Origin: Acidobacteriota bacterium | Lineage (GTDB): Bacteria; Acidobacteriota; Thermoanaerobaculia; UBA5066 | DNA length: 64,000 nt | Reading direction: 5' to 3' | Assembly: GCA_029781975.1 (NCBI GenBank) | Contig: JAKOVQ010000010.1 | Location: 234,375 to 298,374 of the forward strand | Shown: piece by piece, positions 3,001 to 46,280 of the stretch | Position numbering within the stretch: the stretch's first letter is position 1 | Layout of the letters: each line of letters opens with the position of its first letter | Program-made: the position numbers and the translations under genes | Notes under the pieces: generated by a model | Told to the model about the DNA's origin: nothing | The model's input: the letters and a program-made list of their open reading frames with translations, nothing else | The model's database searches: none

Positions 3001-6000
3001 GCGCCAGGTCGAACGTCAGCCGGTAGTCGCCCTGCCCTCGGGTGGTCTCGGCCGCGAGGATCCAGAGCCCGCCCTCGGGAAGGACCGCAGCTTCCAGGCC
3101 CGCGTTCTTGTCGGTCCCCGAGTCGTCCTCCTTCCGCAGGTTCGCGTAGATGAAGCCGTCGGGCGCGATCAGCTCGATCTGCGGATCGAGGCTGGACGGG
3201 TCTTCCCACGGTCGGGACTCGTCGATTCGCTCGAGCCTGGCGGTGACTGCGCTGCCGGCCGGGGCGACGAAGAAGAAGAGGTTGTAGTCGCCGAGGGTGC
3301 CATCGGGGTCACCGTTCGGGAGGAATGACCCCGTGATGGTCTGTCCGGGAAGGATTCGAAGGGCCGCGTGGTGCTCCTCCGGGGTCAGCGGCGTCAGGCT
3401 CCGCTGCCGTCCCTCGATCCCGAGCCAGGTCCAGGACGTCTGCCGCCCCGCCTGGTCCACCACCCTGGCAGCGTAGTAGCCGCCGCCGAGTCCTGCGTCG
3501 AGGGCGAATCGGACTGCGCTCCCGCTCGGCTCGAGCGTCGCTGTCGCGCTCCGGGTGGGGCACTGGCCCAAACCGAGGTCGCAGAGCGGGGTGGAGACGT
3601 CGTCGAGCCGGTATACGGGACCCGCCAGGGTCACCGAGAAGCTGGTCCCGGCGGGATTCTCGAGATACGCGAAGACGTTCGCGTCCCCGGGGAGCGCCGT
3701 GGCTGGCGAGATTCCCAGAAGGGCCATCGGCGGCGGGGCCTGGATGTAGACGAGGTCCCACGCCTCGGTCCAGCTGGACCCCTTGAGATACCTAGCGGTG
3801 ATCTTCACCTCGGTCGAGGGAGCCGGGTACCCGCCCGTGATGGGGAACGACGCGCTCGTGGCCCCTGGCGCGAAGGCGACAGACGGGGGGACGATCGCGG
3901 CGACGGGGTCGGCGCTCACCAGGAGGATGGTCGCTCCGCCGGGCGGGGCCGGTCCGGTCGCGGTGATCGTCCCCGTGGTCGTCGCGAACGACGTCACGAC
4001 CTTGGGCGAGATGGCGAGCTGGGCGAGGTCGAACGCCCCTTCCGGAGCGAGGTTGACGCCGAAGAGGAAGGGGGAGTCGACGCCGATGCTGATGAGAACG
4101 TTCGAGGCCGTCTGGGAGACGTAACCGGCCTTCACGAAGGTGATCGTGTAGCGTCCCTCCGTCAGTCTCAGCGAGAAGCCGCCGCCGGATCCGGTCACCA
4201 CGCTCGTGCCGGATTCGACCGCCGTCACGGTGACCCCCTGGAGACCGAGACCGGTCGAGGCGTCCCCCACCGTGCCGTAGACGCTGCCGTAGCCGAAGAG
4301 GGCCATCCGGCCCGCGTCCGCCGTCTCGCCCCCGAACACCGAGACGGGGGACGATGTCAGGGTGTCGTAGTAGGGGGACTTGGACGCGGTGACCGTGTAA
4401 GTCCCTTGGGGAACCGTCACCCGAAAGAACCCCGAGGAGTCGGTTGTGAGGCGCTCACCGGACTGGTCGACGACGACAGTAGCCGACGCGAGACCGGTCG
4501 TCGGCTGCCTCCCGGCTATCACGACCCGCCCGATGAGGGAGCCGGTGGCGGCCAGTTCGATGTTCCCGAGGTCGAGATCCTGGCCGACTTGAGCAGCGGT
4601 GTCGAGAGAAATGTAGGGCCAGCCGTTCTTCGTAGCCGTGCAGGATCTGTACGGGCCGGGCAGGTCCCGGACGGCGAATCGGCCGTCGGCGTCCGTGACC
4701 GTCGAAGAGCTCATCGTGTAAACGGTGACACCAGGGATCGGGGTCGCGCCGACGGAACTGGTGACTCTCCCGGTCAGGGTCGAGAGCGGCTCGAGAGTTA
4801 GAACCACTCCTGAGGCGGCTTCGCCAGGCGCCAGGAGCACCCGGTTGGAGGAATCCGCTCCGAGAGCTCTCGGCTGCCAACCGTCGAGGGAGACGGTGAC
4901 GGAGACGATGCCTGGCGGCACGGCAAGGTTGAAGGCGCCGGCTGAGTCGGTCAATGCGGTCCCCCCCGTCCCGTCAGCCACGACGCTCGCCCCGACAATC
5001 GGGGCGTCCCCGTACTCGTTGAGGACCCTTCCGGATATCGTCGCGATCGGCTGGGTGAGGGTGAGCGCGGGGGCGGAGACCGCCCCGCCGGCCGTCACGA
5101 CGAGCCGATCGACACCCGCACTCGCCCAGCCGCCCATTTCAGCTGCGACCGAGTACGTCCCCGCCGGCAGGCTGAGGGTGTACTGGCCCTGTCCGTTCGT
5201 CAGTGTCGAAGTGCCGCCAGGGACCGCCAGGACCCGAGCGCCCGACGCGGGAGTGGCGCCGCCGTAGACGACCCCGGAGACCGATCCCGGCGCGGTGGAC
5301 AGCGCGGTCAACGGGACGAAGCCAGCGTTCGAGACTCCGCCGACGACGACCGGGATGGGCGACGTCTCGGCCGTCTGCCAGTTCTCCTTCAGGACCCTGA
5401 CGGCGTGGCTTCCGGCCGGCACCGAGAGGAGGAACTCACCGTATCGATCCGTCCGGGTGGAGAGGCCGGAGCCCGGGACGAGGACCTCGGCATCTTCTAC
5501 GGGCGAGCCCGTCGCCGCGTCCCTCACCAGGCCGACGACCTTCCCGCCCTGCGTGAGGGCGATCGCCCCCGTGCTCACGGTGCCCGTCTCGAGCACCGTG
5601 AACGGTGCGCTGCTCGCCGAAACCCAGCCCGGACTTGTAACCGAGACGGCGTAAGTCCCAGGGGGAACTCCCACGAACCCGAATCCGCCGCTGGAGATGC
5701 TCGTGGGCGGAACGGCGGAACTGGAGAGTGTCGCCGTGCCCGAGCCCAGACGCGTGTCGCTGGCGGCGCTCACGATGCTGCCGACGACGTCGTAGTCGGG
5801 GTTGGGTGGATCGAGATAGACGAGAATCGTACCGATCGAGACCGACTCGCCAGCCGTTACGGTCACGGGTCCTTGTGAGGTGGGTCTCTCGGGATAGCGC
5901 CACGCCTTGAGGGTCCAGGCCCCGACAGGCGCAGTGAGGGTGAAGTTGCCGCTGCCCCCTGTCAGCGTGCACCAGCCTGTTTCGTTTATACAGACCGAGC

Positions 6001-36124: not shown

Positions 36125-38053
36125 TCAGTCGTCGTGCTTCTTGAGGTAGCGGTAGTCCTTGATGTCGTACTCCTTCATCTTCGCGATCAGGCTGCCGCGC
36201 GAGATGTTCAGGAGCCGTGCGCCGAGGGACTGGTTCCCGCGGACCTTGCGCATGACGCGCTCGATGACCTGGCGCTCGACCTTCTCGACGATCTCCTTGA
36301 GGTCGTCGCTCTCGGCCAGCGCCACCTCGAGCCGCTCCTCCCCGAACTTCGGGTCGAGGTCCTTGAGCTTCACGGGGCCCGCGCCGAGGGTCGCGGCGAG
36401 GCGGCGGCACTCGTTCTCCAGCTCCCTCACGTTCCCGGGGTAGCTCGCCGCGAGGAGGGCGTTCATCGCCTCGACGTCGAAGGCCGACGCGGGGGGGCCG
36501 CCGTGGCGGACGGCGAAGGCGTCGAGGAGGGCCGGGAGGTCCTCCTTCCGGTCGCGCAGGGGGGGGAGGCGGACGGTGAGAGTCGCCAGCTCGTAGTAGA
36601 GGTCCTCGCGGAAGGTCCCCTCCTCCATCGCCCGCGTCAGCGGCCGGGAGGTCGTCCCGATGACCCGGACGTCGACCGACGCCGACCGCCCGCCGGGTCC
36701 CACCACCTCGCGCGTCTTCAGGAGGCGGTAGAGGAGCGCCTGCGTGGGGGCGGGGAGGTCGCCCACCTCCTCGATGAGGAGCGTCCCGCCGTCCGCCTCG
36801 AAGAGGCGGCCCGTCCGCCTCCGCCGGTCGGCGGGGCCCGGGCTCCCGAGGAGGTCGTCCTCGAGCGCCGCGGCGGTGGAGGCGGTGGCGGCGATCCTCA
36901 CGAGCGGCCGGGGCCTCCTCGGGGAGAGGGCGTGGAGGGTCTCGGCCGCCAGCGTCTTCCCCGTCCCGACGTCGCCGATCACGAGGACCGAGGCGCGCGT
37001 GGCGGCGATCCGCTGCAGGGACGCCCGGAGGTTCTCCATCGGGAGCGAGTTCCCGACGACCGCCGAGAGCGGCTCCTCGAGGACGACGCTCTGCGGCAGG
37101 GGCTGCGGCGCCACGCCCCGCTCGCCGAACGGGGCCTCGGCCCGCTCGGCGTGGACGAGCCCGGCGGCGGAGGCGAGGCCGAGCGCGAAGTCGTTCATCC
37201 CCGCGTCGGCGGCGAGCTCGTTCGGGAGGACGAGGAGGCCGACCACCTCGGCCAGCGGCCGTGTGACCGGGTAGACGCGGATCCGCGTCCCCGCCTCGAA
37301 CGCGTCGACGGGCGCGCCCGACTCCATCACCTCGTCCACCGTCTTGCGCGACAGCTTCGGGAGGGTCCCCTTCCAGATGGCCGCCACCGCCTCGCCGGCG
37401 CTGGCCTCGGCGATCGAGAGGAACGCCACGCTGTGGACGGGCGTCGAGGAGGAGAGGTAGGAGGCCACGTCCTGGAGGCGCTCCTCGAGCGCGGACCCGC
37501 CCCGGAGCCTCGCGAAGACCTCCGGCCAGACCTCGCCGGGCCGGAACGCCGGGCCGGCCGCCGGACGCGGGTACGAAGGGGGCGCCTCGTACCGCGGCGC
37601 GGGGCGGGCCGGCGGCTGGGCCGGAGGCTCCGGAGCGCGCGGCGCGGCCGGCGCGGGGGCGGCCGGTGCCTGGGGGCTCGGCGCGAGGGCCGCGGCGGCC
37701 ATCGAGAAGGCGTCCCGTCCCCGGGCCGGAGGGGCGGAGATCCTGTTCGGGTTCGGAGCAGGGCCGTTCAGGAGAGTGATCGTCGCCTCGCCAATCGAGA
37801 TCCGGTCCCCCGCCGACAGCGAAGCGGACTTGACGATCGACCCGTTCAGCAGCACGTCGGAGCCGGGAGCCGAACCGAGTACGTCCAGCCGAAGCTCGTC
37901 TCCGGTCACCGAGATCCGTGCGTGCCGTCCCAGGACACCGCGCGCCCTCACGACCAGGTCGTTACCCGACGAGGCGCCGATGTGGATGACGTCCCGGTGG
38001 ACCTTTCGGACCTCCGACTCGCCGCCGGGCTTGCGGACCTCGAAGCTCAACAT
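36125..38053 (-). CDS. Sigma-54-type AAA+ transcriptional activator with an N-terminal FHA domain and a C-terminal Fis-type HTH. The GAFTGA loop is degenerate.
   Basis: FHA domain: IHIGASSGNDLVV…GRHARI…NGS. Walker A in VLVIGDVGTGKT; Walker B LLIEEVGDL; arginine finger region GNVREL. The C-terminal HTH reads RGNQSLGARLLNISRGSLIAKMKEY. Where GAFTGA should be, the protein reads GSPGPADRRRRTG. GGAGG lies 8 nt upstream of the ATG at 38053. Confidence 0.75.
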   Translation of the reverse strand: MLSFEVRKPGGESEVRKVHRDVIHIGASSGNDLVVRARGVLGRHARISVTGDELRLDVLGSAPGSDVLLNGSIVKSASLSAGDRISIGEATITLLNGPAPNPNRISAPPARGRDAFSMAAAALAPSPQAPAAPAPAAPRAPEPPAQPPARPAPRYEAPPSYPRPAAGPAFRPGEVWPEVFARLRGGSALEERLQDVASYLSSSTPVHSVAFLSIAEASAGEAVAAIWKGTLPKLSRKTVDEVMESGAPVDAFEAGTRIRVYPVTRPLAEVVGLLVLPNELAADAGMNDFALGLASAAGLVHAERAEAPFGERGVAPQPLPQSVVLEEPLSAVVGNSLPMENLRASLQRIAATRASVLVIGDVGTGKTLAAETLHALSPRRPRPLVRIAATASTAAALEDDLLGSPGPADRRRRTGRLFEADGGTLLIEEVGDLPAPTQALLYRLLKTREVVGPGGRSASVDVRVIGTTSRPLTRAMEEGTFREDLYYELATLTVRLPPLRDRKEDLPALLDAFAVRHGGPPASAFDVEAMNALLAASYPGNVRELENECRRLAATLGAGPVKLKDLDPKFGEERLEVALAESDDLKEIVEKVERQVIERVMRKVRGNQSLGARLLNISRGSLIAKMKEYDIKDYRYLKKHDD

Positions 38054-38181
38054 GTCTCTGGCCTCCGTTTCCCGTGAGGGAACACCTACGGACGCACAGA
38101 CAGTACCACGTCCGGACGACGCTGTACTCGCCGAGGCGACAGGATCTGAACGCCGGCCTAAGATACCTTCGAGGGCATCTG

Positions 38182-39147
38182 GTGCCGGGATTCCTGATCG
38201 AGGCCGTCCCCTTCTCCGCGACGAGCGACCAGGACCTGGCCGCCCTCCTGGGGACCCTCCGGGCCGCGCTCGACCCCGACGCGTTCGAGATGTCCTTCTT
38301 CTTTCCGCCGACCGGCCGCTGGTACCGGCGCCGCGTGGTGGGCCTCCGGGACTCGGGCCTGAGGCCCCTTCCCCTCTCGGGGCCGTCGCCCCCCCCGGAC
38401 GACGGCTCGGCGCTCGTGGTCCCGTTCGGCGGGCCCGGGGACACGGAAGGGACGCTCCAGCTGATCCGGCGCCGCCCGCGGCCCTGGACCGGCGCGGAGC
38501 GGACGCGGTTCGAGCTGATCCGGCCGCTCGTGGAGCAGCTCGTCGGGACGATCGCCCGCCGCCAGGCCGATCGCTGCGCCCGCCGCCGGCTCTTCGCCGC
38601 CGCGGAGGAGACCGACGCCCCCGTCCTCGCCTTCGACGCGACAGGGACGATCCTCTACGCGAACGGCGCGGCCGACGACCTCATCTCCCTGCAGACCGAG
38701 CAGGGGCTGGCGGTCCTCTCGGGCGGCCGCCGGCAGGCCCCCCTCCTCTCGCACCTCATCCAGCTGGCGCGGACCGACCCGGCGCCGCGACGCGAGCGCC
38801 TGGCCCTCTCGAACGGCCGCTCGCTCGAGGCGCGGGTCGTCGAGGTCCCGCCGGAGGGGCCCGAGCCCTCCTGCCGGCTCGTCGTCCTGCAGGAGCGCGC
38901 GGCCCTCACGATCGACGACGTCCGCCCCCAGCTCCTCGCGCGCGGCGTGTCGGGGCGCGAGGCCGACGTCGTCGCCGGGGTCCTCAAGGGGCTCCGGAAC
39001 GCCGAGATCGCGACCGAGCTCTTCATCAGCGAGTACACCGTGAAGGACCACCTCAAGCACGTCTTCGCCAAGCTCGGCGTCGCCTCGCGCGGGGCCCTCC
39101 TTCGGGAGCTCTACGCCGCCCCCGCCGAGGAGCCGGCGCCCGGCTGA
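38182..39147 (+). CDS. LuxR-family transcriptional regulator with a PAS-like sensor region
   Basis: The C-terminal HTH is the LuxR signature: SGREADVVAGVLKGLRNAEIATELFISEYTVKDHLKHVFAKLG. Upstream, FDATGTILYANGAADDLISL is PAS-like. The start is uncertain. The track ORF begins at 38074, only 20 nt from the divergent gene. I chose the GTG at 38182, which has GAGGG upstream. Confidence 0.55.
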   Translation: MPGFLIEAVPFSATSDQDLAALLGTLRAALDPDAFEMSFFFPPTGRWYRRRVVGLRDSGLRPLPLSGPSPPPDDGSALVVPFGGPGDTEGTLQLIRRRPRPWTGAERTRFELIRPLVEQLVGTIARRQADRCARRRLFAAAEETDAPVLAFDATGTILYANGAADDLISLQTEQGLAVLSGGRRQAPLLSHLIQLARTDPAPRRERLALSNGRSLEARVVEVPPEGPEPSCRLVVLQERAALTIDDVRPQLLARGVSGREADVVAGVLKGLRNAEIATELFISEYTVKDHLKHVFAKLGVASRGALLRELYAAPAEEPAPG

Positions 39148-39235
39148 GGGGCCGGACGGCCGAGCCCGGCCCGCGGACGCCTCGCGACGGACAGGACCGC
39201 CCCGGTCGTGGTAGGGTCGCCCGCCTGACGCCGCC

Positions 39236-42200
39236 ATGTTTCGACTCAAGAAGCTCGAGATCCACGGTTTCAAGTCCTTCGTCGACCGCACCTCCCTGAC
39301 CCTTCCGTCCCGCATCACGGCCATCGTCGGCCCGAACGGCTCCGGCAAGTCGAACATCTGCGACGCCGTCATGTGGGTGCTGGGCGAGCAGTCGGCCCGC
39401 GTCCTTCGCGGGACGACGATGGAGGACGTCATCTTCAACGGCTCCGCCCGGCGAAAGCCCCTCGGCCTCGCCGAGGTCTCCCTGACGCTCGAGGCGCGCG
39501 GGGACGGCCAGTGGGCCGACACGGGGGGCGAGGTCGTCATCACGCGGCGCGTGACCCGCGACGGCGAGGGCGAGTACCTCCTGAACGGCCGCCGCTCCCG
39601 CCTGAAGGACGTCCAGGACCTCCTCCTCGGGACCGGCCTCGGCGTCCGCGCCTACGCGATCATCGAGCAGCAGAAGATCGAGCTGATCCTCTCGAGCAAG
39701 CCGCAGGACCGGCGGCGGCTCGTCGAGGAGGCGGCCGGGATCTCGAAGTACAAGCTCAGGAAGCGGCAGGCCGAGGTGAAGCTCGAGGAGACCCGCGCCA
39801 ACCTCCTCCGCCTGACCGACATCGTCGCCGAGATCGAGAGGACCTGCACCTCCCTCAAGCGGCAGGCCGGCCGCGCCGCCCGCTGGAGGGAGCAGGCCGA
39901 CGCGCTCGCGGCGCTGAAGAAGCGCCTCCTCCGGCTGAAGGGGGAGCGGCTCGCGGAGGCCGTGGCCGCCGCGGAGGCGGCGCTCGCGACGGCGACCGAC
40001 GCCGAGGGACGCGCCCTGGCCGAGGCCGGCCGGCTCGACGCCGCCTTCGAGGAGGCGCGCCACCGCTCGGACGTCGACGAGCGCGCGCGTCGCGAGCGCG
40101 TCGACGCCTTCGCCGCCGCGCGCGAGGCGCTCCTCTCCGCGGAGGCGGAGGCCGCCGCCGCCGCGCGCGAGGCCGAGGAGAGCGACGCCCGCCGAGAGCT
40201 CCTCGAGGCCCAGCGCCGCGAGGCGGAGGCCGACCACCTGCGCGAGGTGGAGGAGGCGACCCGCGGGGAGGAGGCCCTTCAGGAGGCCGTCGCGGCCCTC
40301 GAGGAGGCCGAGGAGCGCGCCCGCGGCACGGCCGAGGCGCTCGCCGCCGCGGCCCGCACCGAGCAGGAGCGGTCGCAGCGCCGCGAGGCGCAGCGGCGCG
40401 AGCTGCTGACGGCGGCCGCGCGCGCCACCGAGGCGACGAACCGCGAGCGCGAGGCCGCGCTCCTCGCCGACCGGCTCGGCTTCGCCCTCGCGAAGCTCGA
40501 GGAGCGGCGCGGCCGCGCCAGCGAGTCGCTCGAGGAGCGGCGTCGCGTGGAGGGCGAGGCCGCCGCCGCGGACGCGGCGACGTCCGAGGCGCTGGACGAG
40601 GCCCGCAGGCGCCTGGAGGAGGCCGGCACCGGCCGCCGCGACGCGCAGGAGCGGCTCGCCTCCCTGAACGGCGAGAAGGAGGCCGCCCAGAAGGCGTTCC
40701 ACGCCCTCGACCGGCGGATCGCGGCCCTCGAGACGCTCCTTGCGGCCCGCGAGTCGGGCGGGGAGGCCGCCCGGAAGGCCCTCGAGGCCGCCGGCGTCTC
40801 TCCCGCCGGCGTCCTCGCCGACTCCTTCGACGCCCGCGAGGGGTTCGAGAGCGCGCTCGACGCCGCCCTCGGCGGCGCCCTCGAGGCGCCCGTCGTCAGG
40901 GACCGGTCCGACCTCGACCGCGTCCTGGCGGCGGTCCGGACCGCTCACCTCGGGACGGCTCGCTTCGTCCACCCGATCCCCGACACGCCGTTCCCCCTCC
41001 GCCCGAAGGACGACCGCGTCCTGGGCGTGGCCCGCGAGCTCCTCAGGCCCCGCCCGGGCGAGGAGGAGCTCGCCTCGGCGCTCCCCGACGCCGTCGTCGT
41101 CCGGACGGTGGACGAGGCGCTCGCCCTCGCCCCTCACCTCCCGGAGCGGACCATCGCCACCGTCGACGGCGTCGTCGTCCGCGGCTCCACGGTCGAGGCG
41201 TCGGGGACGGAGCTCCCGGGGGAGGGGCTCTTCACCGTCCGCCGCGACCTCAAGCAGCTGACGGCCGAGCGCGAGGGGCTCGTGGAGCGGCTCGCCGCGC
41301 TCGACGCCGGGATCGCCGACACCGGGACGGCCGCCGGGGAGCTGGCTGCCGCCGTGGAGCGCGAGGTCGCCGCGAGCCGGCGCGCCGAGCGCGCCCACTC
41401 CGAGGCGGAGGCGCGCCTCGCCTCCGCCCGGCAGGAGACGGCCCGGGCCGAGCGCGAGCTCTTCACGCTCGGCGAGGAGGAGACGGCCCTCCGCGCCGAC
41501 CTCGCGCGCGTAGGGCAGGAGCGGGCGGCCGCCCTCGAGACCGCGGCCCAGCGGACCGCCGAGATGGCGACCGTGGAGAAGGGGATCGCCGACCTCGAGG
41601 CCGAGGTGGAGGCGGCCCGGGCCGCCCGCCTCGCGGCCGCCGAGGCGGACGCCGCCGCGCGCGGGACGCGGGACGTCCTGCGCGAGCGGAAGCGGTCGGC
41701 CGCGGGCGCCTTCGAATCCCATCGCGCCCGCGCCGACGCGGCGGCGCGGCGCCTCGCCGAGACGGCCGAGGCGATGAAGGGCCAGGACGGCCGCAAGGAA
41801 GCCGCCCTCGCCGCCGGGGAGGAGGCGCGCGCGCGGTGCGCGACCCTCGCCGCCGCGGTCGCCGGCGCGGAGGCCGCCCGCGACGCCGCCGCGCGGACCG
41901 CCGAGGAGGGTCGGGCTCTCCTCGAGACGCTCGACCGGCAGGCCCACGAGGCGCGCGAGGCGCTCGACGCGGCCCGGAGGGGGCGGTTCGAGGCCGAGCT
42001 GACGCTCGAGAAGCGGCGCGGCGACGCCGAGCACCTCTCCGAGAGCTGCCGCGCGGAGTTCGGCTGCCTCCCCGCCGACCTCCCCGAGGTGGCCCGGGAG
42101 GAGGGGGAGCCGGCGCCCGACGACGAGGCGCTCGCCGCCCTCTCCGAGGAGGTCGTCCAGAAGACCGTGGCGCTCGAGCGGCTCGGCCCGGTCAACCACG

Positions 42201-42775
42201 CCGCCCTGGAGGAGTTCGACGCCGAGAGCCAGCGCCTGCGGGAGATGTCGACGCAGAAGCTCGACCTCGAGAAGTCGCTCGACCAGATCCTCGAGACGAT
42301 CCGGACGATCAACGCCACGTCGTCCGAGCGGTTCCAGGAGGCGTTCGCCGCCATCAACGCCGGCTTCGACGTCGTCTTCCAGCGCCTCTTCCGCGGCGGG
42401 ACCGCGTCGATGCAGCTCCTCGACGAGAACGACCCGCTCGACTCGGGGATCGAGATCATGGCCCAGCCCCCCGGCAAGAGGAACCAGACGATCGCGCTCC
42501 TCTCCGGGGGCGAGAAGGCGCTGACCGCGGTGGCCCTCCTCGTCTCGATCTTCAAGTACAGGCCGTCGCCGTTCTGCATCCTCGACGAGGTCGACGCGCC
42601 GCTCGACGAGGCGAACATCGACCGCTTCACCGGCCTCCTCTCGGAGCTCTCCGAGGAGACGCAGTTCGTCCTCATCACCCACTCGAAGCGGACGATGGAG
42701 ACCGCCCAGGCCCTCTACGGAGTGACCCAGGAGGAGCCGGGCGTCTCCAAGATCGTCAGCGTCCGCTTCGACTGA
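39236..42775 (+). CDS. smc: Chromosome segregation protein SMC
   Basis: Walker A in MFRLKKLEIHGFKSF…IVGPNGSGKSNICDAV; long coiled-coil arms with Ala/Glu/Arg-rich heptads; signature motif LSGGEKALTAVALL; Walker B ILDEVDAPLDEAN. 1179 aa. Confidence 0.9.
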   Translation: MFRLKKLEIHGFKSFVDRTSLTLPSRITAIVGPNGSGKSNICDAVMWVLGEQSARVLRGTTMEDVIFNGSARRKPLGLAEVSLTLEARGDGQWADTGGEVVITRRVTRDGEGEYLLNGRRSRLKDVQDLLLGTGLGVRAYAIIEQQKIELILSSKPQDRRRLVEEAAGISKYKLRKRQAEVKLEETRANLLRLTDIVAEIERTCTSLKRQAGRAARWREQADALAALKKRLLRLKGERLAEAVAAAEAALATATDAEGRALAEAGRLDAAFEEARHRSDVDERARRERVDAFAAAREALLSAEAEAAAAAREAEESDARRELLEAQRREAEADHLREVEEATRGEEALQEAVAALEEAEERARGTAEALAAAARTEQERSQRREAQRRELLTAAARATEATNREREAALLADRLGFALAKLEERRGRASESLEERRRVEGEAAAADAATSEALDEARRRLEEAGTGRRDAQERLASLNGEKEAAQKAFHALDRRIAALETLLAARESGGEAARKALEAAGVSPAGVLADSFDAREGFESALDAALGGALEAPVVRDRSDLDRVLAAVRTAHLGTARFVHPIPDTPFPLRPKDDRVLGVARELLRPRPGEEELASALPDAVVVRTVDEALALAPHLPERTIATVDGVVVRGSTVEASGTELPGEGLFTVRRDLKQLTAEREGLVERLAALDAGIADTGTAAGELAAAVEREVAASRRAERAHSEAEARLASARQETARAERELFTLGEEETALRADLARVGQERAAALETAAQRTAEMATVEKGIADLEAEVEAARAARLAAAEADAAARGTRDVLRERKRSAAGAFESHRARADAAARRLAETAEAMKGQDGRKEAALAAGEEARARCATLAAAVAGAEAARDAAARTAEEGRALLETLDRQAHEAREALDAARRGRFEAELTLEKRRGDAEHLSESCRAEFGCLPADLPEVAREEGEPAPDDEALAALSEEVVQKTVALERLGPVNHAALEEFDAESQRLREMSTQKLDLEKSLDQILETIRTINATSSERFQEAFAAINAGFDVVFQRLFRGGTASMQLLDENDPLDSGIEIMAQPPGKRNQTIALLSGGEKALTAVALLVSIFKYRPSPFCILDEVDAPLDEANIDRFTGLLSELSEETQFVLITHSKRTMETAQALYGVTQEEPGVSKIVSVRFD

Positions 42776-43631
42776 GCCGCCGCAGGTCTCGGGTCCCGGC
42801 GAGCGGGACGACGTTCGCCGGTCCCGCCTCGGGGCCGATCCGGGAGGAGCTGGCAGGAGCCGGCGACCGGTGCGCGAGGAGCCAGTCGTAGATCGCCCGG
42901 TCGCCGTAAGCGCGCGTCCAGGCGTCGTGCCCCTCCTCGAGACGGATCTCGAGGCGGACCTCGCCGCCGCACCCCTCGAGCTCCCGCGCGACGCGCGAGG
43001 CCCGGCGCCACGGGATCCTCTCGTCGCCCCGGTTGTGGATGATCCAGACCGGGACGCTCCGGAGCCGGCAGGGATTCGAGGGACCGCGGTCGATCGAGAC
43101 GGCGACCACCGCCGCGATCCGGCCCGGCCTCGCGGCCGCCAGGTCGAGCGCGGCGGACCCGCCCGCGCTCAGCCCCGTCGCGTAGACCCGGCTCGGGTCG
43201 ACGGGGAGCGTCGCGAGGAGGTGGTCGAGGAGCGCGTCGAGGGCGGGGAGGGACCATTCTTCCGGGAAGGGGCACTGGGGGGCAACGACGAGGAAGGGGA
43301 ACTCGTTCCGGTCCTTCAGGAGCCACGGCAGCCCCTCCCGCTCGACGTCTTTCAGGTCGTTCCCCCGCTCACCCGCTCCGTGGAGGAAGAGGATGAGCGG
43401 CCACCGCACCGTCGTCCCCTCGGCAGACTTCGGGACGAACTGGAGATACCGGATCGTCCGCCAGCGATGCCCCGGGAGCCGCAGCGCCTCCTCCACCTCG
43501 CGGGACGGGAGGGGGGCAGCGCGAGGGGGAGGCGCACAGGCCGAGAGGAGGACTCCCAGGGCAAGGAGCGCCGGGGGGCCGGACCGGCGACGGTTCACGC
43601 CCCGATGGTAGCAACGAATCGGTGAAGCCAA
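42756..43631 (-). CDS. Alpha/beta-hydrolase-fold esterase (phospholipase/carboxylesterase or PHB-depolymerase-like), a lipoprotein
   Basis: Lipobox-like LLALGVLLSAC; oxyanion-hole motif LFLHGAGE; nucleophile elbow GLSAGG; a C-terminal His. The 3' end overlaps the smc stop by 20 nt. Confidence 0.6.
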   Translation of the reverse strand: MASPIRCYHRGVNRRRSGPPALLALGVLLSACAPPPRAAPLPSREVEEALRLPGHRWRTIRYLQFVPKSAEGTTVRWPLILFLHGAGERGNDLKDVEREGLPWLLKDRNEFPFLVVAPQCPFPEEWSLPALDALLDHLLATLPVDPSRVYATGLSAGGSAALDLAAARPGRIAAVVAVSIDRGPSNPCRLRSVPVWIIHNRGDERIPWRRASRVARELEGCGGEVRLEIRLEEGHDAWTRAYGDRAIYDWLLAHRSPAPASSSRIGPEAGPANVVPLAGTRDLRRLSRSGR

Positions 43632-43671
43632 CCGTTAAACCCATTAGGCACAGCTGTTTCGATGTATCAGT

Positions 43672-43702
43672 AGAAATCTTAGCGCATTATGCTAAGATTT
43701 CT
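43672..43702. promoter_or_regulatory. Perfect 12-bp inverted repeat AGAAATCTTAGC-(7 nt)-GCTAAGATTTCT in the AT-rich divergent intergenic region upstream of lon. It is a candidate repressor operator.
   Basis: Read directly: agaaatcttagc gcattat gctaagatttct. Each arm is the exact reverse complement of the other. It sits in a 70-nt AT-rich spacer between the esterase gene (minus) and lon (plus), 45 nt before the lon start codon I prefer. Confidence 0.5.
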
Positions 43703-43746
43703 CCGTGAGCCGGAATATTGGTCTTTCCTCCGGCGTTGGAGCTTCC

Positions 43747-46239
<2,493 letters not shown>

Positions 46240-46251
46240 CGGGCTCCCGGT

Positions 46252-46280
46252 CCGGCCGCCCGCCCCGCGCGGGCGGCCGG
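46252..46280. terminator. GC-rich hairpin (11-bp stem ccggccgcccg / cgggcggccgg, 7-nt loop) between the convergent lon and acyl-CoA dehydrogenase genes. It may be a bidirectional terminator, but there is no U-tract.
   Basis: The arms are perfect reverse complements. It lies between the lon stop (46237-46239) and the ACAD stop (46292-46294). Confidence 0.35.

Follow-up and report, generated by a model that had tools for sequence, protein, structure and literature searches.

HspR, a MerR-family repressor of heat-shock genes acting through the operator HAIR, is described in Streptomyces, Mycobacterium, Deinococcus, Helicobacter and Campylobacter; occlusion of the promoter by bound HspR and its release under stress are established from Streptomyces, Helicobacter and Campylobacter. 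The canonical HAIR sequence is CTTGAGT-N7-ACTCAAG (PMC6102357). The minimal HspR consensus of Streptomyces coelicolor is TTGAGY-N7-ACTCAA, and dnaK, clpB and lon are HspR targets in vivo in this species (PMC2687793). Targets reported for the Deinococcus HspR are dnaJ, lonB, hsp20 and clpB. At the Pgro and Phrc promoters of Campylobacter jejuni and Helicobacter pylori, HspR is bound upstream of the core promoter and HrcA over the start site, whereas HAIR overlaps the core promoter where HspR is the sole regulator (PMC7464140). The consensus of CIRCE, the operator of HrcA, is TTAGCACTC-N9-GAGTGCTAA (PMC7464140). A full-text literature search returned no relevant paper on heat-shock regulation in Acidobacteriota or on an acidobacterial HspR regulon with a dksA-like member.

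We analyzed a palindrome located upstream of lon in a 64-kb stretch of acidobacterial DNA, which is referred to as the window; loci from other genomes are designated by L numbers. Judged by sequence comparison, the element most likely belongs to the HAIR/HspR family as one of its divergent forms and does not constitute a wholly new operator class. We assign a probability of about 0.65 to the reading that it is a divergent HAIR-type operator of an acidobacterial heat-shock regulon, bound by a dimer of an HspR-like MerR-family repressor that keeps lon expression low.

The initial annotation described a perfect 12-bp palindrome with a 7-nt spacer in an AT-rich divergent region before lon, about 45 nt from a start codon with a good ribosome-binding site. 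The coordinates, the local drop in GC content and the Pfam assignment of lon were all confirmed (Table 1). The arms AGAAATCTTAGC and GCTAAGATTTCT are 100% reverse-complementary, and the element reads TCTTAGC-GCATTAT-GCTAAGA in its 7-N7-7 form (positions 43677-43697). The GC content is 0.40-0.47 over positions 43610-43729 and about 0.65-0.85 on either side. The GTG start codon of lon (position 43747) begins 44 nt past the end of the right arm.

The genes around the site encode, in order, Smc (smc, 39215-42775), a lipoprotein esterase, Lon and an acyl-CoA dehydrogenase; the 64-kb window contains no gene for a chaperone. The esterase gene starts at GTG 43599 and encodes a lipoprotein-type signal with a lipobox (MNRRRSGPPALLALGVLLSACA). 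This gene may share its control region with lon. The esterase-lon divergence is not conserved, as an Impact_N gene intervenes in the relatives L001-L003 and L010. The nearest homologues of the Lon protein are annotated as endopeptidase La of Thermoanaerobaculia and, where named, belong to Thermoanaerobaculia or Holophagales metagenome-assembled genomes (MAGs). Apart from an identical Lon on record, the best-matching Lon sequences are 74-76% identical, and the source is therefore an isolated lineage of Thermoanaerobaculia (Acidobacteriota). Downstream, 13 nt past the lon stop codon, in the interval where lon and the acyl-CoA dehydrogenase gene converge, there is a perfect GC-rich 12-bp inverted repeat CCGGCCGCCCGC-N5-GCGGGCGGCCGG (46252-46280) without a T-run, probably a terminator hairpin common to both genes.

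Table 1. Features of the lon control region in the window and copies of the palindrome core in other genomes
Feature	Location	Strand	Details
Divergent lipoprotein esterase/alpha-beta-hydrolase gene	window 42756..43599	-	ORF list; weak Pfam matches to Esterase, Abhydrolase_2 and Peptidase_S9
AT-rich divergent intergenic region, 147 bp	window 43600..43746	.	esterase gene on one side, lon on the other
Predicted -35-like hexamer of the lon promoter	window 43671..43676	+	TAGAAA; overlaps the left arm; aligned with CTTGAAA of L001, L003 and L010
Palindrome left arm	window 43672..43683	.	AGAAATCTTAGC; sequence read; conserved core half-site: inner 8 bases, ATCTTAGC (43676-43683)
Spacer, 7 nt	window 43684..43690	.	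GCATTAT; length conserved, sequence free
Predicted extended -10 of the lon promoter	window 43690..43698	+	TGcTAAGAT; inside the right arm; aligned with TAAAGT of the relatives' lon and the L185 dnaJ-hspR promoters
Palindrome right arm	window 43691..43702	.	GCTAAGATTTCT; conserved core half-site: inner 8 bases, GCTAAGAT (43691-43698)
Ribosome-binding site of lon	window 43738..43741	+	GGAG; sequence read
lon (ATP-dependent protease La, 830 aa), presumed controlled gene	window 43747..46239	+	Pfam Lon_C, LON_substr_bdg, AAA, Lon_lid
Core before clpB	L094, L142		two Bryobacterales
Core before lon	L133, L166		two unclassified Acidobacteriota
Core before hsp20-groES-groEL	L178		Acidobacteriota
Core before dksA-like gene	L101, L105, L119, L132, L158, L172		six Terriglobia, Solibacteraceae or Bryobacteraceae genomes
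Core before lon	L145		Solirubrobacteraceae
Core in dnaK-dnaJ spacer, 39-41 nt before dnaJ	L095 (3750-3800), L141 (6245-6295)		Oscillospiraceae
Core before dnaJ-hspR, 18 nt	L138		Holophagaceae MAG; TCTTAGC-N7-GCTAAGA; 0 mismatches
dnaJ-hspR site	L183		TCTTAGT-N7-ACTAAGG; 1 mismatch to TCTTAGY-N7-RCTAAGA
dnaJ-hspR site	L185		CCTGAGT-N7-GCTAAAG; HspR 92% identical to that of L138
dnaJ-hspR site	L184		CATGAGT-N7-GCGCAAA
dnaJ-hspR site	L181		TATGAGT-N7-GCGCAAC

The palindrome is not a product of chance, given that 20,000 shuffles of the intergenic 147 nt never produced a perfect inverted repeat of 12 bp with 3-15 nt between its arms, and that the 16-base core ATCTTAGC-N7-GCTAAGAT matches the window once at up to three mismatches (0.01 expected). 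Markov-1 copies of the whole window contain on average 0.59 of these 12-bp repeats, and the real window contains four distinct ones. No second copy of the 12-mer half-site was found in the 64-kb window at up to two mismatches.

We scanned 185,579 genomes, one per species, for the core and obtained 90 matching stretches. By our own estimate, which assumes uniform base composition, about 140 matches are expected by chance, thus most of the 90 are background; many of them lie in low-GC genomes and have no common context. In Acidobacteriota, all 12 matches are intergenic, and each is located shortly before a proteostasis gene or operon, namely lon, clpB, dnaJ-hspR, hsp20-groES-groEL or a dksA-like gene. 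Further copies precede lon in a member of Solirubrobacteraceae and dnaJ in two members of Oscillospiraceae. The ClpB, Lon, DnaK, DnaJ and DksA-like identities of the target genes were confirmed with NCBIfam. The expectation of the initial annotation that other copies would be found near chaperone and protease genes was thus borne out in other genomes of the phylum. As a negative control, we scanned 505 kb of other fetched loci for TCTTAGY-N7-RCTAAGA with up to two mismatches and found sites only in the window and in L183, where the site lies directly before dnaJ-hspR. One match of the genome scan stands apart: in an alphaproteobacterial MAG (L093, 5523-5545), the 16-base core is located 20 nt before a Phd/YefM-like antitoxin gene and is probably a chance match within an unrelated toxin-antitoxin operator.

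Comparison of 16 sites, the window site and 15 from other genomes in three phyla, revealed identical arms and a spacer that is always 7 nt long and has a different sequence in each site. Identical arms around a free spacer of fixed length are the pattern expected for a symmetric protein dimer. In each arm, conservation is limited to the 8 bp next to the spacer; symmetry of the outer 4 bp (AGAA/TTCT) is confined to the window, where they coincide with the -35-like hexamer and with a T-rich stretch past the -10. The 12-bp perfection is therefore probably composed of a core operator and its promoter context. The core is thus conserved at heat-shock gene promoters across Acidobacteriota and appears to be a protein-binding site. 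That the palindrome is functionless, being either a chance symmetry of the sequences that flank the -35 and -10 of an AT-rich promoter or a quasi-palindrome "corrected" by template switching, would agree with the restriction of the outer symmetry to the window genome and with the weak dyad at the homologous position of L001 and L010. This explanation is nevertheless scarcely credible, as it is strongly disfavoured by the recurrence of the identical 16-base core before heat-shock genes in the 15 other genomes and by the outcome of the intergenic shuffles.

We compared the site with three groups of Thermoanaerobaculia-like lon loci. The lon promoter is strongly conserved in L001, L002-L006 and L010 (CTTGAAAATCTAAGCCG..ATTTACTAAAGTTTATCCTTGAGTCC). 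The promoters of L001, L003 and L010 align gaplessly with the window and with the dnaJ-hspR promoters of L138 and L185. In this alignment, the left arm corresponds to the -35 of the relatives (TTGAAA; GTAGAA or TAGAAA in the window) and the right arm to their -10 (TAAAGT; TGcTAAGAT in the window). The dyad of L001, L003 and L010 is degenerate, TCTAAGC-N7-ACTAAAG, and matches that of the window at 11 of 14 positions; L007 and L008, also among the closest Thermoanaerobaculia relatives, have no such dyad before lon. A consensus promoter scan yielded no sigma-70 promoter at the site, TAGAAA being below its threshold, and the -35 and -10 of lon are predictions from the alignment.

Heat-shock promoters of sigma-32 (RpoH) have the -35 element CTTGAAA, which also occurs at the lon -35 of L001, L003 and L010. 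However, the window has GTAGAAA at that position, and the -10 sequences (TAAGAT, TAAAGT) are unlike CCCCATNT. We rejected a sigma-32 promoter as an explanation of the palindrome because of this -10 mismatch and because a dyad with a free spacer is no signature of a sigma factor. A CtsR direct repeat was rejected as well. An intrinsic terminator was also rejected, since none was detected by a terminator scan, the stem consists largely of A and T, and the genes on either side have their starts, not their ends, at this place. A tRNA scan found nothing at the site.

The link to HspR comes from the Holophagae. In L138, the palindrome is followed by dnaJ and then by a gene encoding a 133-aa MerR-family protein, the two best NCBIfam matches of which are HspR models, with a score of 98.8 bits that lies slightly below the equivalog cut-off of 105. 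Homologues of this protein, named HspR by JGI, are present in Holophaga foetida, Mesoterricola, Acidicapsa and Terracidiphilus. The location of the site before the HspR-encoding operon in L138 and L183, both of them genomes other than the source, resembles HspR autoregulation. Five orthologous dnaJ-hspR promoters of Holophagae form a graded series, in which the sites of L185, L184 and L181 approach both canonical HAIR and TTGAGY-N7-ACTCAA (Table 1), and the HspR proteins are 75-92% identical across these graded sites. Such intermediates in series at orthologous promoters constitute a further likeness to HAIR. Holophaga foetida, Mesoterricola and Acidicapsa dinghuensis lack the exact palindrome at their hspR loci, and the first two have HAIR-like variants.

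Several side observations were made at these hspR loci. In the Holophagae loci L138, L181 and L183-L186, the genes dnaK, dnaJ and hspR are followed, in this order, by a gene of the sigma-70 family (about 288 aa). RpoS and RpoH are its best NCBIfam matches, all below cut-off, and it may encode a heat-shock sigma factor tied to the hspR locus. Upstream of dnaK in L181, L184, L185 and L138, a conserved element made up of (A/T)T(C/T)T(T/G)AGT and then (T/G)G(A/T)AGAT occurs just before a -35 element TTGAC(A/G). This dnaK element resembles the palindrome, with a degenerate right arm and the outer pentamers one base closer. The dnaJ-hspR spacer of Acidicapsa dinghuensis (L187, 5740-5870) contains six tandem repeats of about 22 nt, each with TGCGCAATC; the dnaJ sites of Holophaga and Mesoterricola likewise have GCGCAA as their right half-site.

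Compared directly with HAIR, the window site has the same architecture of 7-bp arms and a 7-bp spacer, and its half-site shares T3, A5 and G6. However, four of the seven half-site positions differ (TCTTAGC vs CTTGAGT), and the conserved core here reaches 8 bp (ATCTTAGC). Over both arms, the site agrees with CTTGAGT-N7-ACTCAAG at 6 of 14 positions and with TTGAGY-N7-ACTCAA at 7 of 12; the orthologous dnaJ-hspR sites of Holophagae bridge the two sequences. The targets lon, clpB, dnaJ/dnaK and groESL are also those of an HspR regulon. Sites of the TnrA/GlnR type, which are bound by other MerR-family proteins, have the form TGTNA-N7-TNACA and likewise consist of short half-sites 7 bp apart, but their half-site sequence and their regulon (nitrogen metabolism) are unrelated. 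Our search for a solved HspR structure found none, and the closest solved structures to the acidobacterial HspR are those of GlnR/TnrA-type and metal-sensing MerR proteins.

In the initial annotation, the palindrome was taken for a probable operator of heat-shock or proteostasis genes that differs from CIRCE and is recognised by a dimeric helix-turn-helix protein other than HrcA. This proposal is supported by the occurrence of the core at chaperone and protease promoters in the 12 Acidobacteriota and by L178, which carries both elements. There, the palindrome lies 8 nt before TTGACA-17-TAATAT, followed by a near-consensus CIRCE TTAGCACCC-N9-GAGTGCTAA and then by hsp20-groES-groEL (3605-3720). 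The order of the palindrome upstream of the promoter and CIRCE downstream is that of Pgro in Campylobacter and Helicobacter, and by analogy with these genera suggests dual control of L178 by an HspR-like protein and HrcA. We attach practically no weight to the alternative that the window palindrome is a degenerate CIRCE bound by HrcA. Both elements are palindromic heat-shock operators that contain the pentamers TTAGC and GCTAA, a resemblance that the initial annotation had pointed out. It turned out to be coincidental: the pentamers are the outer ends of CIRCE, 17 nt apart, and the inner ends of the window palindrome, 7 nt apart. Moreover, CIRCE has 9-bp arms and a 9-bp spacer, and the two elements occur side by side at the single promoter of L178.

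A hairpin in RNA or DNA, acting as a stability element of the 5'-leader, as an RNA thermometer or as an attenuator, provides another possible explanation for the inverted repeat. RNA folding predicts a stem of 12-13 bp (z = -2.3 for a 101-nt region), and in the Oscillospiraceae copies, the arms extend to 15-16 bp, and the two genomes differ from each other at two symmetric positions in a compensatory manner; neither of these loci (L095, L141) has hspR within 8 kb. In contrast, the sequence of the arms is conserved beyond pairing over unrelated genes and classes, the core is located anywhere between 18 and 140 nt before the start codon, and the stem does not include the ribosome-binding site. 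The L178 element is upstream of the predicted -35 and hence would be untranscribed, and the window palindrome overlaps the predicted -10, mostly upstream of the likely start site. Rfam gave no match at gathering score anywhere in the window, RNA thermometers included, the scan found no terminator-like site, and both flanking genes point away. We thus consider a hairpin function very unlikely. Separately, in the predicted fold of positions 43702-43742, the GGAG of lon is surrounded by pairing that involves the CUCC next to the palindrome and an inner stem, GCCGGA/UCCGGC; this weak signal depends on the start of transcription.

Among the targets of the operator, a DksA-family gene occurs most often. 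At all six dksA-like sites, G(G/A)AAC-N16-17-CGTCT, a promoter of the ECF-sigma type, is located 5 nt after the palindrome. The dksA gene was first found as a suppressor of dnaK. This target, with its ECF-type promoter, is no described target of HspR and sets the acidobacterial sites apart from the known HspR regulons.

These observations bear on the alternative that the element is a genuine heat-shock operator read by a dimeric DNA-binding protein other than HspR, common to Acidobacteriota, Solirubrobacterales and Oscillospiraceae. Its arguments are the 6/14 match to HAIR, the identity of the commonest target and the distribution of hspR. Neither hspR nor any other MerR-family gene was found within the 64-kb window. 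Representative, cluster and profile searches tied no HspR homologue to Thermoanaerobaculia, as none of the matches carried a taxon name of that class. Only one of the 15 loci associated with heat-shock genes (L138) has hspR within 8 kb, and the hspR locus of Acidicapsa lacks such a site. On the other side, the site lies directly before dnaJ-hspR in L138 and L183, the orthologous Holophagae sites grade into HAIR-like ones although the HspR proteins are 75-92% identical, and both the 7-N7-7 geometry and the clpB, lon, dnaJ and groESL targets are those of HspR. We therefore regard a reader other than HspR as unlikely. If it existed, ATCTTAGC-N7-GCTAAGAT would define a regulon of heat-shock and stringent-like character that has so far gone unrecognised, made up of clpB, lon, dnaJ, groESL and the gene of an RNA-polymerase-binding protein of the DksA family and common to Acidobacteriota, Solirubrobacterales and some Oscillospiraceae, a prospect that we consider rather doubtful.

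We infer HspR to be the repressor of this operator, strongly for the Holophagae and more weakly for the source genome. Under the HspR reading, an HspR-like dimer would bind the half-sites TCTTAGC and GCTAAGA, 7 bp apart, and would cover the lon promoter from the predicted -35 to the -10, so that RNA polymerase is excluded and lon expression is low. By analogy with the characterised HspR systems, proteotoxic stress would titrate a chaperone co-repressor, the repressor would leave the DNA, and lon would be induced. The window promoter fits the HspR-only class, since it has no CIRCE or other second operator and the palindrome lies over the predicted core promoter.

Acidobacteriota are among the most abundant soil bacteria. 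The sequence ATCTTAGC-N7-GCTAAGAT provides a concrete, searchable operator and a first candidate heat-shock regulon for this phylum, comprising lon, clpB, dnaJ-hspR, hsp20-groESL and the dksA-like gene. HspR and HAIR are already well known; what is new, as far as the searchable literature goes, is the acidobacterial regulon with its divergent half-site and its dksA-like member. It would follow that the drift of HAIR-type operators away from the Streptomyces consensus goes far beyond what consensus-based searches allow for, and that such searches would miss them. The regulon would also link a DksA-family protein with an ECF-type promoter to the chaperones. For the window itself, the palindrome can be annotated as a putative control element of lon, and lon as a gene predicted to be stress-inducible.

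The control of lon seems to be split in Acidobacteria-like bacteria between sigma-54-dependent and HAIR-type strategies. Most of the lon loci recovered by a metagenome scan with Lon are more distant ones, which have sigma-54 promoters and lack the palindrome; they served as a negative control. Among the metagenome loci L011-L090, the sigma-54-type promoter TGGCAY-N6-TGC is present no more than 200 nt before lon in 61 of 68 distinct upstream regions. No sigma-54 promoter was found before lon in the window, L001-L010 or L166. About 5 kb upstream of lon, the window contains the gene of an FHA-domain sigma-54 activator (36125-38680, minus strand), which adjoins that of a LuxR/GerE-type regulator (37990-39147, plus strand).
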